Sequence record: MN850609.1
Source: Escherichia phage dhaeg
Direction: 5' to 3' (one strand)
Length of the DNA stretch: 64,000 nucleotides
The position numbers and the translations under genes were made by a program. Below, one piece after another: positions 30,964 through 61,437 of the stretch. Every line of letters starts with the position of its first letter. Within the stretch, counting starts at the first letter, position 1. Below the pieces are notes generated by a model. The model made no database searches, was not told the DNA's origin, and worked only from the letters and a program-made list of their open reading frames with translations.

Positions 30964-30995
30964 TTATTTACAACGGGCTCTAGTGATGATACTAT
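30964..30995 (+). promoter_or_regulatory. sigma70-type early promoter cassette
   Basis: TTTACA-17-TACTAT followed by conserved ...cctatcaaaacaaatgagtga..ggagaataaaATG leader. Confidence 0.55.
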
Positions 30996-31031
30996 AGCCC
31001 TATCAAAACAAATGAGTGATTGGAGAATAAA

Positions 31032-31969: not shown

Positions 31970-32043
31970 GGCCCTGTAGCTGGACGGTCAAGCGAGCGAC
32001 TCATAATCGCTGGATGGTGGTTCGATTCCACCCAGGGCCACCA
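31970..32043 (+). tRNA. tRNA with CAU anticodon (Met or lysidine-type Ile)
   Basis: Hand-folded cloverleaf: acceptor GGCCCUG/CAGGGCC, anticodon stem AGCGA/UCGCU with loop CUCAUAA, T-arm GGUGG-UUCGAUU-CCACC, encoded CCA. Confidence 0.75.
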
Positions 32044-32047
32044 ATTT

Positions 32048-32122
32048 GGATGTGTAGCTCAGTGGTAGAGCAGTTGACTGTTAATCAATTGGTCCATGGT
32101 TCGAATCCATGCATGTCCGCCA
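32048..32122 (+). tRNA. tRNA-Asn (GUU)
   Basis: Acceptor GGAUGUG/CAUGUCC (two G-U pairs), D-arm GCUC-AGUGGUA-GAGC, anticodon loop CUGUUAA, T-arm CAUGG-UUCGAAU-CCAUG, encoded CCA. Confidence 0.75.
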
Positions 32123-32126
32123 AATA

Positions 32127-32202
32127 CGAGGCATAGCTCAGAAGGAAGAGCAAGGACCTTCTAAGTCCTGGGTCGTAGGTTCGATCCCTACTGTCTCGAC
32201 CA
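32127..32202 (+). tRNA. tRNA-Arg (UCU)
   Basis: Acceptor CGAGGCA/UGUCUCG, D-arm GCUC-AGAAGGAA-GAGC, anticodon stem AGGAC/GUCCU with loop CUUCUAA, T-arm GUAGG-UUCGAUC-CCUAC, encoded CCA. Confidence 0.8.
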
Positions 32203-33064: not shown

Positions 33065-33086
33065 AAGGAGACTTCGGTCTCCTTTT
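33065..33086 (+). terminator. rho-independent terminator
   Basis: GGAGAC-UUCG-GUCUCC followed by UUUU. Confidence 0.6.
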
Positions 33087-33120
33087 AGGGGGTTTAAACT
33101 AAAAATAATTTCACAAAGTT

Positions 33121-33149
33121 GTTTACACCTCCTTTAAACGTGATACTAT
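33121..33149 (+). promoter_or_regulatory. sigma70-type early promoter cassette
   Basis: GTTTACA-16-TACTAT plus conserved leader; -35-proximal CCTCCTT can pair with downstream AAGGAG RBS. Confidence 0.55.
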
Positions 33150-33184
33150 AGACCTATCAAAACAACAGAGTGAAGGAGAGTAAA

Positions 33185-33450: not shown

Positions 33451-33486
33451 GTTTACACGGGCTCATGATTGAGATATTATGAGCCC
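33451..33486 (+). promoter_or_regulatory. early promoter with promoter-spanning stem-loop
   Basis: GTTTACA then inverted repeat GGGCTCAT...ATGAGCCC enclosing a TATTAT -10-like hexamer. Confidence 0.5.
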
Positions 33487-33505
33487 GTAATTTGAGGAGA
33501 GCATA

Positions 33506-33907: not shown

Positions 33908-33943
33908 GTTTACAACCCTCAGAGGACAGGGTATAATGTCCTC
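33908..33943 (+). promoter_or_regulatory. early promoter with promoter-spanning stem-loop (consensus TTTACA-17-TATAAT)
   Basis: gTTTACA ... TATAAT with stem AGGACA...TGTCCT flanking the -10. Confidence 0.6.
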
Positions 33944-33980
33944 ATGGATTACAAAATATCAACCGACTGAAGGAAATACT

Positions 33981-39132: not shown

Positions 39133-39166
39133 GTGTACAAGGTCTATAGGTGTGATACTATAGACC
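39133..39166 (+). promoter_or_regulatory. early promoter cassette with promoter-spanning stem
   Basis: TGTACA-16-TACTAT; inverted repeat GGTCTATAG...CTATAGACC spans the -10. Confidence 0.5.
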
Positions 39167-39198
39167 TATCAAAACAACAGAGTGAAATGGAGAATAAA

Positions 39199-39411
39199 AT
39201 GAAACTTTCTAACCAAGCAATCAACATGTTAAACGAAGTTCGTGCAGCTGGTGCTAAATGTCTGATGGTTAACACTCGTGACGGTGACCTTCGTCAAGCA
39301 TTTGGTGAATTGAAATCTGCTGACCTGGTTAAATGTTCGGTTGGTATCGGTAATGCACTTCGTGTATCCTTATCCCCTAAAGGTAAAATGTACTTTTTCA
39401 ACAAAAAGTAA
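39199..39411 (+). CDS. hypothetical protein
   Basis: 70 aa; ATG after conserved ggagaataaa RBS. Confidence 0.5.
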   Translation: MKLSNQAINMLNEVRAAGAKCLMVNTRDGDLRQAFGELKSADLVKCSVGIGNALRVSLSPKGKMYFFNKK

Positions 39412-41666: not shown

Positions 41667-41674
41667 TATAAATA
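41667..41674 (+). promoter_or_regulatory. late promoter (TATAAATA) for gene e
   Basis: Exact TATAAATA 22 nt upstream of e ATG, overlapping the 5' arm of an RBS-sequestering hairpin. Confidence 0.7.
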
Positions 41675-41694
41675 CCTCCTATAATCAGGAGGTA
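41673..41694 (+). promoter_or_regulatory. RBS-sequestering hairpin in the e leader
   Basis: TACCTCCT-ataatc-AGGAGGTA; 3' arm is the Shine-Dalgarno for e. Confidence 0.7.
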
Positions 41695-41696
41695 TT

Positions 41697-42185
41697 ATGG
41701 ATATTTTTGATATGTTACGTCAAGACGAAGGTCTTGATTTAAATCTTTATAAAGACACCGAAGGTTATTGGACTATTGGTATAGGCCAATTGATTACTAA
41801 GAACCCATCTAAAGATGTTGCTCGCGCTGAACTTGATAAGCTTATGGGTCGAGTTTGTAATGGTCGTATTACTATGGCTGAAGCCGAACAACTCTTTAAT
41901 CGTTCAGTAGAAAATGCCCGTAGAGCTATAACGCGCAATCCTAAATTGAAACCGGTTTATGATGTGCTAGACGAAGTTCGTCGTTGCGCATTGATTAATA
42001 TGGTCTTCCAAATGGGTGAAGCTGGTGTAGCGGGATTTACCAACTCTCTGCGTATGCTCCAACAAAAACGTTGGGATGACGCCGCAGTTAACCTGGCGCA
42101 GTCTCGTTGGTACAAGCAAACCCCTAATCGTGCCAAGCGTGTTATCGCCACCTTTAAAACAGGTACTTGGGCCGCTTATAGATAA
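41697..42185 (+). CDS. e: endolysin (T4 lysozyme)
   Basis: 162 aa; ...[26 protein letters not shown] ... [52 protein letters not shown] matches recalled T4 lysozyme. Confidence 0.95.
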
Positions 42186-42190
42186 AAGCA

Positions 42191-42219
42191 GTTTACATCT
42201 CCGGTAGGCATGATACTAT
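42191..42219 (+). promoter_or_regulatory. early promoter cassette for denV
   Basis: GTTTACA-16-TACTAT plus gacctatcaactacaggagatta leader; near-identical copy at 44321. Confidence 0.6.
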
Positions 42220-42245
42220 AGACCTATCAACTACAGGAGATTAAA

Positions 42246-42662
42246 ATGACTCGTATCAACCTTACCTTAGTATCTGAATTGGCTGACCAACACTTAATGG
42301 CTGAATATCGTGAATTGCCACGTGTTTTCGGTGCAGTTCGAAAGCATGTTGCTAACGGTAAACGTGTTCGTGATTTTAAAATCAGCCCTACTTTTATCCT
42401 TGGTACAGGCCATGTCACATTCTTTTATGATAAGCTTGAATTTTTACGTAAGCGTCAAATCGAGCTTATAGCCGAATGTTTAAAACGTGGCTTTAATATC
42501 AAGGATACTACGGTCCAGGACATTAGTGATATTCCTCAGGAATTCCGTGGTGATTATGTTCTTCACGAAGCTTCTATCGCTATTTCACAAGCCCGTTTGG
42601 ATGAAAAAATTGCACAACGTCCTACCTGGTACAAACATTATGGTAAGGCGATTTATGCATAA
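42246..42662 (+). CDS. denV: endonuclease V (pyrimidine dimer DNA glycosylase)
   Basis: 138 aa; almost identical to recalled T4 DenV ([50 protein letters not shown]...). Confidence 0.97.
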
Positions 42663-42800
42663 GGGAGCAACCTGGACCTCACAATTCTGTGAGGGACTCC
42701 CGCCAACCTGTAATAAGGTCGAGCCCAAGTGCGGTAATGGGTAAATGCAGAAAGGGACGAATTAATGTGCCAAGGAACGGCCCACAACTAAGAGACAACT

Positions 42801-44320: not shown

Positions 44321-44349
44321 GTTTACATCTCCTGTAGACGTGGTACTAT
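44321..44349 (+). promoter_or_regulatory. early promoter cassette for regB (direct repeat of the denV cassette)
   Basis: GTTTACA-16-TACTAT; about 60-bp near-identical repeat of 42185-42245. Confidence 0.6.
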
Positions 44350-44377
44350 AGACCTATCAACTACAGGAGATTACAAA

Positions 44378-44836
44378 ATGTCAGAAATTAATTCAGAAGT
44401 ATTCATCCGCCGCAACAAATTACGTCGTCAGTTCGAAACCGAATTTCGTGAACTTAACGCGTCCATCAAAAAAGCCGCCATTAAGAGCGGTGTCCCAGCT
44501 TTCTTTATTAAGTACTCTAATCACTTGTTGGACCGTGCTATCCAACGTGAAATTGACGAAAAATATGTTTTCTCTTTGTTCAAGAAGCTCCATAATCATG
44601 TTAAAGAAATCCATGAATTTTTAATCCAGGAGCCTCTTCCTGACATAGAATCTGAAATTGTCCCAGGTAAAGTGTATCGTCCACTGCGTCTCGAGATTAC
44701 CGATAAAACCTTATGGTTGGGTATGACCGTAGATCGTAAACATCCTGATAAAGGATATTCATTAAAATGTCGTATGGCATTTGTTAATTCTAAACGTTTA
44801 GAAGGTAAAACCAGCACGAAAGTAATCTATCTTTAA
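44378..44836 (+). CDS. regB: site-specific RNA endonuclease RegB
   Basis: 152 aa; EVFIRRNKLRR.FE.EFR ... HLLDRAIQREIDE.YVF ... RLEITD..LWLG matches recalled T4 RegB. Confidence 0.9.
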   Translation: MSEINSEVFIRRNKLRRQFETEFRELNASIKKAAIKSGVPAFFIKYSNHLLDRAIQREIDEKYVFSLFKKLHNHVKEIHEFLIQEPLPDIESEIVPGKVYRPLRLEITDKTLWLGMTVDRKHPDKGYSLKCRMAFVNSKRLEGKTSTKVIYL

Positions 44837-48417: not shown

Positions 48418-48446
48418 AAAGGTCTCACTTCGGTGGGACCTTTTTT
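48418..48446 (+). terminator. rho-independent terminator
   Basis: GGUCUCAC-UUCG-GUGGGACC followed by UUUUUU. Confidence 0.65.
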
Positions 48447-48455
48447 CGTTTTAGT

Positions 48456-48484
48456 GTTTACATCCTCTAGGAACGTGATACTAT
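48456..48484 (+). promoter_or_regulatory. early promoter cassette
   Basis: GTTTACA-16-TACTAT plus gacctatcaactaatgaggag leader; -35-proximal ATCCTC can pair with the GAGGAG RBS. Confidence 0.6.
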
Positions 48485-48512
48485 AGACCTATCAACTAAT
48501 GAGGAGAATAAA

Positions 48513-51723: not shown

Positions 51724-51918
51724 AGAAGAAATCAAGGTTTTCCTGTCATATGGAAGACCTCATAAAACCTGTCGTTGGTATCTTGAAGTAGTTTGTAGAG
51801 AAACCGGTAGACGAATCAATTTCAAGTACGTATGCAAGCCTACGTCTAAGCAGATAAGACGGTGTATTAACTGGGCTATCAATAATATCCGCTTCCATAA
51901 TTATTGGAGCGCAATTTA

Positions 51919-51941
51919 GGAACCTTCGGGTTCCTTTTTTT
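51919..51941 (+). terminator. rho-independent terminator
   Basis: GGAACC-UUCG-GGUUCC followed by UUUUUUU. Confidence 0.65.
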
Positions 51942-51960: not shown

Positions 51961-51989
51961 GTTTACAACCTAGTAGAGCATGTTATTAT
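51961..51989 (+). promoter_or_regulatory. early promoter cassette
   Basis: GTTTACA-16-TATTAT plus ggacctatcaa leader. Confidence 0.55.
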
Positions 51990-53361: not shown

Positions 53362-53390
53362 GTTTACATCTCCAGTAGAAATGATACTAT
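53362..53390 (+). promoter_or_regulatory. early promoter cassette
   Basis: GTTTACA-16-TACTAT plus gacctatcaactaatggagg leader. Confidence 0.6.
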
Positions 53391-53416
53391 AGACCTATCA
53401 ACTAATGGAGGTTATC

Positions 53417-53941
53417 ATGAACGCTAAAGATATTTTTTCACTGATTAATTTTAACAATGGTAATTTCAAATCTGAAAAACAAAGCAAGTTCTTTAACGAC
53501 GTTGCTTGTGGTAATGAGATTACCGTATCTGGAGGAGAGATTTACAAAAGCCGTTGGAACTGGATTGTTATCATCGATTCAGTTGGTATTGTAGAGCTCT
53601 ATAAAAACACTAACAAAAAACGTACTCTTCACTGGAGTCGTGAAACCAATCAAGCTTATCAAGCCGAGCGTAATAAACGTTTAATGCCTACTGAATCTGA
53701 CCTGGCAAACGTTAAATCAGATATCGCTTATTTTGATAACTTGATTGCCGAACAACAAGCGGTTATTGATAAGTTTGACGAAATCAAAGCTTGTAAAGAG
53801 ATTCCTGAATTTATGCGGGAATCAGTAAACGAACAGTATGCCCTCACTTCAGGTCGTATCGAGCAGTACAAATCACAACGAGCTGAACGCCAAGCTCTGC
53901 TTCAGAAATTTGAAGAGCGTTTAAAGACGGTTCTCGCATAA
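53417..53941 (+). CDS. hypothetical protein with C-terminal coiled coil
   Basis: 174 aa from ATG 53417 after GGAGG. Confidence 0.5.
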   Translation: MNAKDIFSLINFNNGNFKSEKQSKFFNDVACGNEITVSGGEIYKSRWNWIVIIDSVGIVELYKNTNKKRTLHWSRETNQAYQAERNKRLMPTESDLANVKSDIAYFDNLIAEQQAVIDKFDEIKACKEIPEFMRESVNEQYALTSGRIEQYKSQRAERQALLQKFEERLKTVLA

Positions 53942-58844: not shown

Positions 58845-59318
58845 ATGTTGCTGACTGGCAAATTATACAAAGAAGAAAAACAAAATCTTTATGATGCACA
58901 ACATGGTAAGTGTTTGATTTGTAAACGTGAATTAAACCCTGATGTTCAAAGTAACCACCTTGACCACGACCATGAATTGAATGGGCCAAAAGCCGGTAAG
59001 GTTCGTGGTTTACTATGTAATCTGTGCAATGCTGCAGAAGGACAAATGAAGCATAAGTTCAACCGTTCTGGTTTGAAAGGTCAAAACGTTGACTACCTCG
59101 AATGGTTAGAGAATTTGCTGGTCTATCTGAAAGCTGATTATACCGAAAATAATATCCATCCTAATTTCGTTCCTGATAAAACCAAAGAGTTCAGTAGATT
59201 AGGTAAGGAAGAAATGATTGCTGAAATGCTTTCACATGGAATGACTTATAATGAATCTGACACAAAGAAACAAATGGTCGATTCATTTAAAAAACAACTG
59301 AGGAAATCGCTTAAATGA
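58845..59318 (+). CDS. 49: endonuclease VII (Holliday junction resolvase)
   Basis: 157 aa; MLLTGKLYKEEKQ..YDAQ.GKCLIC.RELNPDVQ.NHLDHDHELNGPKAGKVRGLLCNLCNAAEGQMKHKFNRSGLKGQ matches recalled T4 gp49. Confidence 0.95.
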   Translation: MLLTGKLYKEEKQNLYDAQHGKCLICKRELNPDVQSNHLDHDHELNGPKAGKVRGLLCNLCNAAEGQMKHKFNRSGLKGQNVDYLEWLENLLVYLKADYTENNIHPNFVPDKTKEFSRLGKEEMIAEMLSHGMTYNESDTKKQMVDSFKKQLRKSLK

Positions 59319-59948: not shown

Positions 59949-60246
59949 AATTGAGATTTACGGTATCCCTGAGACAGTCATGCGCTGTCCAGGGTGCATT
60001 GCAGTTCTATCGCTCCTAAATTCCCTTTCTATCCCACATACTTTCTATCCTGTGATTAACCAGACGCCGTCAGGCGCAGTATATGACAAGCCTCTTATAG
60101 TATCATTGGCCAAACGCGCCGGCTTCAAGAGCTTAGCTATACGCTATCCTGTCATCTTTGTTGATAATAAGAAAATAGAAAATATTCCTGCTTTTAAAGC
60201 ACTTTTGATTGAACTTGGTTATGACCGAGATTTAATTGAAGATTAG
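59929..60246 (+). CDS. glutaredoxin-like protein (CPGC motif)
   Basis: Proposed GTG start at 59929 with AAGGAG 9 nt upstream; N-terminus KIEIYGIPETVMRCPGC resembles a Grx/NrdH beta1-CxxC start. Confidence 0.5.
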   Translation: MDQKLTKIEIYGIPETVMRCPGCIAVLSLLNSLSIPHTFYPVINQTPSGAVYDKPLIVSLAKRAGFKSLAIRYPVIFVDNKKIENIPAFKALLIELGYDRDLIED

Positions 60247-60247
60247 T

Positions 60248-60276
60248 GTTTACTTCCTCTCCTCACGTGTTATAGT
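60248..60276 (+). promoter_or_regulatory. early promoter with long RBS-sequestering stem
   Basis: GTTTACT-16-TATAGT; CCTCTCCTCACGTGT pairs with downstream ACACATGAGGAGA containing the RBS. Confidence 0.55.
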
Positions 60277-60305
60277 CTATCCTATCAACACATGAGGAGA
60301 ACATT

Positions 60306-60482
60306 ATGACTATCCAAGATAAAGAAATTAAAGTCCACCAGTATTATTCAATCAACGGCAAAGCTGTTCTAGTAACTGAAATATCTAGCCTGGACGTGTG
60401 GTATACCATAATTGACCTTAATATTAAAATGATTTGTGACCGTGGTGTATTTTGTTCGATAGCTAAGGAAATTAAATTATGA
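60306..60482 (+). CDS. hypothetical small protein (58 aa)
   Basis: ORF below track cutoff, directly downstream of promoter and GAGGAGAA RBS. Confidence 0.4.
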   Translation: MTIQDKEIKVHQYYSINGKAVLVTEISSLDVWYTIIDLNIKMICDRGVFCSIAKEIKL

Positions 60483-60735: not shown

Positions 60736-61029
60736 ATGGGTAAAACTATCCGTCGTAAAGAATTGCCTGTAAAAGATTTTTATTATTCCGGACGCCGTAA
60801 AGCACCATACGGCGTAAGTCAGGAAAGAGTTGAAGAAAATATCTTCCGTTCTGACAAGTGGAAACGTATGCGTGGCGTTGATTCTGAAGTTAAGAATGAA
60901 ATGAACCGCCAACTTCGTAAAGAAGTAAGAAAACTGAAAAAAGATGTTTACAGCGACGATGAACCTGATTACAATACTTCTCATCGAGTTGCAAAACGTA
61001 AATCAAACGAATGCTATCGTTACAGCTGA
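60736..61029 (+). CDS. hypothetical basic protein
   Basis: 97 aa, Lys/Arg-rich. Confidence 0.45.
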   Translation: MGKTIRRKELPVKDFYYSGRRKAPYGVSQERVEENIFRSDKWKRMRGVDSEVKNEMNRQLRKEVRKLKKDVYSDDEPDYNTSHRVAKRKSNECYRYS

Positions 61030-61036
61030 GGAAAAT

Positions 61037-61168: not shown

Positions 61169-61369
61169 ATGAATCCTGAATCTAAATTATCACAACGAAT
61201 TGCTGAAGCCCGTCGTCAGTTCTTTGAAAATATGATAGCCCAAGGTATTGATGACGAAGTTTTTCTAAACTGGTTTTGGAATAACAAATATTCAAAATGC
61301 TCAGGAGCAATATTGATATCAGCCGCGATGATGTATGAAGGCTGGAAAGGCGCCAAAGCACAAAAATAG
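61169..61369 (+). CDS. hypothetical protein
   Basis: 66 aa ORF. Confidence 0.45.
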   Translation: MNPESKLSQRIAEARRQFFENMIAQGIDDEVFLNWFWNNKYSKCSGAILISAAMMYEGWKGAKAQK

Positions 61370-61398
61370 TTTACAAACTCTTGGGACCAGAGTATAAT
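61369..61398 (+). promoter_or_regulatory. early promoter (TTTACA-17-TATAAT) with promoter-spanning stem
   Basis: Stem GGGACC...GGTCCC flanks the -10. Confidence 0.55.
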
Positions 61399-61437
61399 GG
61401 TCCCACGGATTATAAATTTTAAACTGAGGAAATTATT

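Follow-up and report, generated by a model that had tools for sequence, protein, structure and literature searches.

The 64,000 nucleotides of Escherichia phage dhaeg analysed here (sequence record MN850609.1; hereafter the window) share about 97% identity with Escherichia phage JS98 and related T4-like phages, all members of the genus Dhakavirus. The early region on the + strand starts at about 29 kb and runs onward; by the JS98 annotation it includes e, denV, the genes from vs.8 to regB, tk, the nrdC.x genes, 49, nrdH, 55.6 and others. We scanned the window for cassettes in which a T4-type early promoter is followed by a Shine-Dalgarno sequence (SD) and an ATG, and found about 17 of them. 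Their promoters are of the sigma-70 type (GTTTAC-N17/18-TAnnnT). In four of these intergenic cassettes, preceding denV, regB, an nrdC.8-like gene and 55.6, the promoter and the initiation region of the gene downstream contain the two arms, of 11-14 nt, of a strong stem that includes the SD.

Repeated promoter/stem-loop/SD cassettes have been described in the variable early regions of T4-like phages under the name of promoter-early stem-loops, or PeSLs (Arbiol 2010, Comeau 2014). Their stem-loops were proposed to be terminators or attenuators, and recombination sites (PMC2839356, PMC4122927). These papers mention neither a pairing between promoter spacer and SD nor a role in translation. The features of the four strong cassettes are the following:

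60244-60246: stop codon of nrdH, just upstream of the −35 of 55.6
60248-60276, + strand: early promoter of 55.6 (JS98 annotation), with −35 GTTTAC at 60248-60253, a spacer of 17 nt and −10 TATAGT at 60271-60276
60258-60271, + strand: 5' arm (anti-SD) of 55.6, TCTCCTCACGTGTT, within the promoter spacer
60287-60300, + strand: 3' arm of 55.6, AACACATGAGGAGA, including the SD GAGGAG at 60294-60299; the leader is 29 nt long and the ATG is at 60306
42191-42245, + strand: denV cassette, −35 at 42191, −10 at 42214-42219, ATG at 42246; 5' arm ATCTCCGGTAG at 42197-42207, 3' arm CTACAGGAGAT at 42231-42241
44321-44377, + strand: regB cassette, −35 at 44321, −10 at 44344-44349, ATG at 44378; 5' arm ATCTCCTGTAG at 44327-44337, 3' arm CTACAGGAGAT at 44361-44371
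53362-53416, + strand: nrdC.8-like cassette, ATG at 53417; 5' arm ATCTCCAGTAG at 53368-53378, 3' arm CTAATGGAGGT at 53402-53412

The original prediction held that the sequence next to the −35 element can pair with the downstream SD in several cassettes. All the sequences it cited are present, with coordinates off by 0-3 nt, and the complementarity is longer than it claimed. Thus, ATCTCC/GGAGAT, cited for denV (42197) and regB (44327), lengthens in both cases to a stem of 11 positions, perfect at regB and with one G.A mismatch at denV. The nrdC.8-like cassette, absent from the earlier list, has one U.G wobble and one G.A mismatch. The stem of 55.6 has 14 positions with a single C.A mismatch, and 60248-60320 folds with a minimum free energy of −21.6 kcal/mol (z −4.2), a value matched by none of 200 dinucleotide shuffles.

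The 5' arm, always between the −35 and about +1 of the early promoter, is usually found in the spacer just after the −35; in some relatives it takes up the −10 and the next bases. The loops enclosed by the SD-pairing arms have 15-25 nt. The pattern GTTTAC-N17-TACTATAGACCTATC is matched five times in the window, against none expected. The stems match no curated family of Rfam 15 at the gathering threshold in the whole window, where the sole matches are three adjacent tRNAs (31970-32199, + strand). The small proteins encoded downstream of the cassettes have no match in Pfam.

Excess over chance and selection of the pairing

The complementarity exceeds what is expected by chance. When the spacers were shuffled, 0.49 cassettes were expected to reach a spacer-to-SD score of at least 6, against five of the 17 observed, and 0.04 to reach a score of at least 8, against three observed (P<0.0005). 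The feature is also restricted to promoter-bearing genes: among 79 + strand genes, crudely called, a complement of the initiation region with a score of at least 8 was found upstream of 4 of the 13 genes with their own early promoter and of none of the 66 others (Mann-Whitney P=1.6e-4). In 74 non-redundant cassettes of the window and its relatives, duplexes between spacer and initiation region averaged −7.5 kcal/mol for cognate and −5.8 kcal/mol for non-cognate pairs (permutation P ~5e-5), a figure that is inflated by orthologous redundancy.

It is hardly credible, then, that the pairing arose by chance or as a by-product of pyrimidine-rich promoter spacers and purine-rich SD motifs. A CUCC/GGAG core is expected from any CTCC-rich spacer, and non-cognate pairs still reach about −5.8 kcal/mol. 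Yet, the remaining early-promoter spacers are not CTCC-rich, the pairing reaches 5-9 nt past the SD core and covaries, and the shuffle and non-cognate controls reject this explanation, which is largely refuted already. We also considered CTCC as a plain part of the early-promoter consensus and rejected it, since the spacers of the other 11 or so cassettes are unrelated to the anti-SD (e.g., AACGGGCTC, AACCCTCAG, AGCGACGAT).

We then looked at covariation. A scan of IMG/VR with a promoter pattern of 21 specified bases gave 60 distinct GTTTAC-N17-TACTATAGACCTATC cassettes from about eight Dhakavirus genomes; a scan with the 14-mer TATAGACCTATCAA, which matched mostly unrelated contigs, was dropped in its favour. 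Dhakavirus has three perfectly paired variants of the stem, with compensatory changes between them at two positions:

ATCTCCTGTAG/CTACAGGAGAT: denV and regB
ATCTCCAGTAG/CTACTGGAGGT: nrdC.8-like gene, with one U.G
ATCTCCATTAG/CTAATGGAGAT: another gene

In an alignment of 24 cassettes, which takes in family members that do not use this stem, 70.8% of the cells pair, against 63.7% in shuffles and 31-52% when the partners are slid, and the covariation score is 0.272 against 0.186 in shuffles; neither value was reached in 500 shuffles. At the 55.6 locus, we compared seven loci from a related-locus search and INPHARED records. In MX01, an A to G change in the 5' arm turns A-U into G.U. In VR5, CAC is replaced by TGT in this arm, so that C-G becomes U.G, A-U becomes G.U and the C.A mismatch is repaired to U-A. 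All these substitutions retain or improve the pairing, and do so solely in the sense RNA.

The same strand preference is seen more broadly. In a stem search that penalised G.U and A.C alike, the unique stems with a score of at least 6, including both the SD-pairing stems and the hairpins at the −10 described below, had 18 G.U and 2 A.C mismatches, or about 14 and 2 independent events when judged by eye. This excess therefore points to sense-strand RNA, not to a DNA palindrome or an antisense RNA. Judged by these sequence comparisons, selection acts on the pairing in the form of sense-strand RNA.

Exchange between cassettes has left traces in the arms themselves. By a PeSL-type insertion or deletion, JS98 carries ipIII and orf114 between e and denV, and the window lacks both. 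The e-denV junction of the window (42186-42213) joins two JS98 halves, the left one of the e-ipIII cassette and the right one of the orf114-denV cassette, and the crossover falls inside the anti-SD arm, between ATCTCC and GGTAGGC, where the G at 42203 that causes the G.A mismatch also sits. The nrdC.8-like stem is fully paired (CCAGTAG/CTACTGG) in most relatives, IMG/VR loci included, while the window (CTAATGG) and JS98 (CCATTAG) each have one arm from another variant, resulting in reciprocal mismatches. These chimeric arms look like the product of an exchange between cassettes within the conserved loop.

Such recombination, together with the documented shuffling mediated by PeSLs (PMC2839356, PMC4122927), might suggest that the inverted repeats act in DNA, as recombination or cruciform sites, or are palindromes perfected by quasipalindrome-templated mutation, with no function in RNA. 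This is very improbable: neither DNA hairpins nor templated repair should produce a strand-specific excess such as that of G.U over A.C (18 to 2), cruciforms are disfavoured by loops of 15-25 nt, and the initiation region of the gene invariably forms the 3' arm.

Stems of denV, regB and nrdC.8 in T4 and other genera

The arrangement extends beyond Dhakavirus. In T4, denV has a stem of 10 bp that is nearly identical to that of the window (TCTCCTGTAG/CTACAGGAGA), regB has one of 15 positions including two G.U (TTTTCCTCTTGACTG/CAGTTAAGAGGAGAA), and nrdC.8 has one with two G.U (GTTCCTCTGTGGT/ACTACGGAGGAAC). As T4 shares the design at these three genes, it can be tested directly in this phage. Across genera, each stem has its 5' arm within the promoter of the gene concerned, and the initiation region of that gene serves as the 3' arm. 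For regB we found:

Mosigvirus: TTCTCCTCTAGTTG/CAACTAGAGGAGAA
Gelderlandvirus: TTTCTCCTCTTTATG/CATAAAGAGGAGAAA
Winklervirus: ATCCTCATTTG/CAAATGAGGAT
Mosugukvirus: CCTCCTTTT/GAAAGGAGG
Tegunavirus: spacer GTTAGTTCA with codons 2-5, and additional pairs over the AUG
Gaprivervirus: −10 and following bases AGTTATGATTATC with GATAATCATGACT, i.e., the stretch from SD to AUG and codon 2
Jiaodavirus: weak TTTCCTT/AAGGAGA surrounding a nested −10 hairpin
Krischvirus: promoter absent from the corresponding position

Duplexes between the promoter-internal sequence of regB and its local transcript averaged −17.5 kcal/mol for cognate and −10.6 kcal/mol for non-cognate pairs (P ~1e-5), and eight out of ten genera had z ≤ −2.5 against shuffles. 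RNAalifold, applied to an ordinary MAFFT alignment of the regB leaders, recovered the helix with double changes in 10 of the 12 pairs. We give preference to the per-genus shuffles and the cognate/non-cognate matrix, because MAFFT/RNAalifold is not structure-aware and the registers differ between genera.

Five lineages besides T4 show pairing with the initiation region of denV, with differing sequences. Shuffle scores were used for three of them (ATK47, CF1 and Sf23); the z of −5.1 for X20 was set aside because it had been computed on the wrong promoter register.

Mosigvirus ATK47: TTCCTCCAAG/CTTGGAGGAA, z −4.5
Winklervirus X20: ATGATGTCTTCC (−10 and following bases) with GGAGGACATCAT
Moonvirus CF1: TCTCCTGTG/CACAGGAGA, z −2.6
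Dhakavirus of the LHE83 type: TAGTGTTCTC/GAGAACACTA
Tequatrovirus Sf23: nested stems, z −0.5, not significant

The nrdH-55.6 junction is occupied by a different cassette in Gaprivervirus and in VR20. In Gaprivervirus, this cassette has a terminator-like hairpin, AAAGGGG-TGTACAAG-CCCCTTT, which overlaps the −35 (GTGTAC). Its conserved +1 box, TATCCCATCA, can pair with the SD TGATGAGGA, so the local transcript of this genus may hold part of the anti-SD.

The position of the 3' arm bears on whether the hairpin could serve RNA decay instead. RegB cleaves GGAG in single-stranded RNA when an A-rich stretch follows, and secondary structure inhibits it (PMC1702504). The stem might thus hide the GGAG of the SD from RegB or other RNases and keep the read-through RNA intact for distal genes. 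All the cassettes have SDs of the GGAG type, several near the consensus GGAGAAUAAAA, and the phage encodes regB, which is itself behind one of the cassettes. On the other hand, the longest unbroken pairing at Tegunavirus regB covers the AUG and the first codons, the 3' arms of Gaprivervirus regB and Winklervirus denV cross the SD-to-AUG spacer into the start codon, and T4 denV keeps its stem even though its sequence makes it RegB-resistant. We regard decay as an improbable primary function, compatible though it is with the data. As the 3' arm outruns the GGAG in several genera, protection from RegB would be secondary; since a masked SD blocks translation anyway, it would be an added effect and not an alternative.

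Read-through transcripts and translation

The original prediction also stated that transcripts of the local promoter leave the RBS (the ribosome binding site) free, whereas those coming from upstream contain both arms. The promoter geometry fits this. RNA polymerase would start about 7 nt after the −10, as we infer from the geometry of sigma-70 promoters, and because the 5' arm lies upstream of this start, the hairpin should be possible in read-through RNA only. The local mRNA would exclude the 5' arm and have an open SD, and RNA from upstream early, middle or late promoters would include both arms. Our literature search found no genome-wide data set of transcription start sites for T4 or JS98. 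Read-through is plausible at the four strong cassettes, because the upstream open reading frame (ORF) ends close by, 2-8 nt before the −35, and a terminator scan of the window called no intrinsic terminator upstream of any of them. In such RNA the SD, and sometimes the AUG, would be buried in a stem of 11-15 bp with a loop of about 15-25 nt. The claim that read-through RNA could sequester the RBS agrees with the predicted cost of opening the SD, which is 8.1-14.6 kcal/mol in read-through RNA and 2.4-4.2 kcal/mol in local RNA:

denV: read-through 8.2, local 3.0 kcal/mol
regB: read-through 10.6, local 4.2 kcal/mol
nrdC.8-like gene: read-through 8.1, local 2.7 kcal/mol
55.6: read-through 14.6, local 2.4 kcal/mol
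gene e: read-through 10.6, local 3.7 kcal/mol

Ribosomes would initiate poorly on the folded RNA. The outcome would be translational insulation, in which DenV, RegB, the nrdC.8-like protein and gp55.6 are made essentially only as long as the early promoter of the respective gene is active. The untranslated read-through segment might be open to Rho-dependent polarity, and the buried GGAG might be shielded from RegB. A subset of early promoters holds the complement of its own gene's initiation region and probably insulates its translation. The proposal that translation depends on promoter choice is supported in this form by the sequences, but for a subset of genes and not for many early genes, as had been put forward: we count four strong and two weak cases among the 17 or so cassettes.

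Were the SD freed on read-through RNA by ribosomes that finish the upstream ORF, and only by them, the arrangement would be one of translational coupling. The upstream stop codons, which lie 8-13 nt ahead of the 5' arm, almost always touch or overlap the −35, as coupling would have it. A terminating ribosome would extend with its leading edge no further than a few bases into the 5' arm, and the GGAG would stay unfreed; this footprint geometry is unfavourable to coupling. The short distance from stop to arm is equally explained by genome compaction, and the spacing is without particular conservation. Coupling is therefore quite unlikely, somewhat more so than a primary role in decay.

Two other pairings cited by the original prediction, at 48463/48500 and 33128/33168, exist as sequences, but their stems are short or interrupted. 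Both weak cassettes, and the early-promoter cassette at 51961, are directly behind canonical terminators, several with loops of the UUCG type, and have weak or no anti-SD stems:

48456-48512, + strand: weak cassette, TCCTC (48463-48467) with GAGGA (48501-48505), plus TAG/CTA over a bulge of 2 nt
48418-48443: intrinsic terminator called by the terminator scan, directly upstream of the 48456 cassette
33121-33184, + strand: weak cassette, CTCCTTTA (33129-33136) with TGAAGGAG (33171-33178)
about 33065-33087: terminator-like hairpin upstream of the 33121 cassette
51918-51935: intrinsic terminator called by the same scan, directly upstream of the 51961 cassette

Terminators and anti-SD stems may be alternative means of insulating a cassette. 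In some predicted folds the −35 hexamer GTTTAC lengthens the helix by pairing with GUAAA/UAAAA between SD and AUG, e.g., at 33121-33126 with 33180-33184, and also in the 42191 and 48456 cassettes. This may merely reflect the A-rich spacers of T4 initiation regions.

In most of the remaining early promoters the 5' arm occupies the same position in the spacer and the 3' arm lies right after or over the −10, which leaves the SD open. The PeSL papers give five positions for the stem-loops: either box may be covered (the −35 or the −10), or the stem-loop lies before the −35, between the two boxes or immediately after the −10. The following hairpins of the window have the classical form, and the first four were found at one of these positions:

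33451-33505: ACGGGCTCAT/ATGAGCCCGT
33908-33980: GAGGACA/TGTCCTC
39133-39200: AGGTCTATAG/CTATAGACCT
61369-61437: TGGGACCA/TGGTCCCA
30966-31031 and 60946-61036: further sites

The classical hairpins also covary with T4 (in e.7, CG is replaced by TA on both arms) and show the G.U bias. It could be argued that the SD-pairing stems are plain PeSL stem-loops as well, i.e., terminators or attenuators of upstream transcription or stabilising 3' structures, in which the SD is involved incidentally. Such roles were proposed in the PeSL papers, terminator activity was found with a lacZ fusion for one stem-loop of RB49/phi1 (PMC2839356), and the prevalence of −10 hairpins off the SD, in T4 as in the window, suggests a common role. 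However, the sequence after the SD-pairing stems is A-rich (UUAAAAUG, AACAUUAUG) with no U tract, the terminator scan calls none of these stems, and canonical terminators are present separately where termination is evidently wanted. The 3' arm follows the initiation region, be it the SD, the stretch from SD to AUG, or the AUG and first codons, and not a fixed distance from the promoter. Although the least unlikely of the alternatives considered here, this one is still unlikely. A role as terminator or attenuator fits the −10 hairpins and not the SD-pairing stems. The identity of the latter as intrinsic terminators was itself considered and rejected, given their loops of 15-25 nt in addition to the tails and the scan.

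Several observations weigh against translational insulation. Just about one third of the early promoters of the window use SD pairing, and because the other hairpins leave the SD open, a role common to all cassette hairpins cannot be the masking of the SD. For the 33121 and 48456 cassettes, long and short RNA are predicted to differ negligibly, and the SD-pairing stems enclose large loops. Recent variants hold uncompensated mismatches (the G.A of denV in the window, and the chimeric nrdC.8-like arms in the window and JS98), so selection is not absolute. Many of the Dhakavirus cassettes are paralogous copies and therefore not independent observations. Among the regB leaders, the Jiaodavirus stem is weak, and Klebsiella phage phi1_146055 has a −10 hairpin only, with no pairing to the initiation region.

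Were translation nevertheless insulated as we propose, promoter choice would set the translatability of defined early genes in addition to the timing of their RNA. This would help to explain how regB, which is autoregulated via cleavage of its own SD, is limited to the first minutes despite continued transcription. The stem-loops of PeSLs would gain a second, translational meaning beyond their roles in termination and recombination, and it would become clear how cassettes are shuffled without upsetting the dosage of the genes they carry. A wider generalisation is possible but more tentative, slightly short of an even chance in our estimation: the stem could be a general insulator of the mobile early cassettes of T-even-type phages, by which a gene is translated from self-initiated transcripts only and is silent on read-through. 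A module of promoter and gene would then be independent of context when shuffled, and the dose-sensitive RegB nuclease and endonuclease V would be kept strictly early. The insulator would act alongside Rho polarity and the cleavage of open SDs by RegB; its arms would co-evolve, and cassette recombination would yield mismatched chimeras.

We also noted a G+C-rich stretch of about 140 nt 3' of denV (42663-42800), with no evident coding capacity and a fold no better than shuffles (z 0.04). Its counterpart in JS98 is another promoter cassette with a small gene of an internal head protein. The ORF of 175 aa that follows this stretch in the window has no Pfam match.

Relation to PeSLs, T4 late hairpins and RegB

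The cassettes of the window resemble PeSLs in being repeated, intergenic and about 60-100 bp long, and in the succession of an A/T-rich upstream part, a strong early promoter, a stem-loop, an SD and a start codon. Like PeSLs, they cluster in variable early regions and mark crossovers for gene gain and loss. The SD-pairing subset differs in the reach of the stem, which joins a 5' arm in the spacer to a 3' arm 25-35 nt further downstream, at the SD, and this subset falls in none of the five stem-loop positions given for PeSLs.

The proposed mechanism has its closest precedent in T4 genes e, soc, 49 and I-TevI, where a late promoter inside a hairpin governs translation, with an effect of 100-fold for e (PMC3014915). 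Hairpin control has also been predicted or shown for I-TevII, I-TevIII, mobE and segB, and the 2010 review of post-transcriptional control in T4 lists no case with an early promoter (PMC3014915). Two of these hairpins are present in the window:

41667-41699, + strand: gene e, with the late promoter TATAAATA at 41667-41674 overlapping the 5' arm, and the ATG at 41697
41671-41680 and 41687-41696: 5' arm AATACCTCCT and 3' arm AGGAGGTATT of e, the known T4-type e hairpin (PMC3014915)
58815-58839: hairpin ACCCTTA...TAAGGGT that buries the initiation region of gene 49 (endonuclease VII), with the ATG at 58845, in agreement with the known T4 gene 49 structure

The original prediction had seen the same logic at gene e (41667-41694), and there we indeed find both the hairpin and the overlapping late promoter. 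Among the hairpin genes examined in the window, e alone has the late promoter TATAAATA. RNA reaching denV in the window would include late e transcripts, so the denV arrangement mirrors the e hairpin. Valerie and colleagues reportedly described, in 1986, potential T4 stem-loops before ipIII, ipII, denV and an ORF near regB (58-65 kb region). Our literature search found no mention of those stem-loops. If the report is accurate, they were possibly seen earlier without this mechanism.

RegB control acts on the GGAG SDs of the same early genes, regB included, and likewise limits early expression to the first minutes. As a nuclease, RegB works in trans and requires GGAG in single-stranded form, whereas the feature described here is an RNA structure in cis that would hide the site in long transcripts.

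As in e, soc, 49 and I-TevI, the SD and/or AUG of the strong cassettes is predicted to be held within a stable helix whenever the RNA comes from an upstream promoter, and covariation supports this helix. The promoter also appears to be placed, by its geometry, such that its own RNA, a short and translatable mRNA, begins within the 5' arm or beyond it. In the T4 genes, the internal promoter is late (gp55, TATAAATA) and delays translation or, in the intron cases, protects splicing. In the cassettes of the window, by contrast, the internal promoter is early and of the sigma-70 type, the 5' arm is in the −35/−10 spacer, and the effect would be to limit translation to the early promoter's own transcripts. 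What appears to be new, as far as the sequences tell, is hence the use of the logic of e, soc, 49 and I-TevI by early promoters, inside cassettes of the PeSL type.

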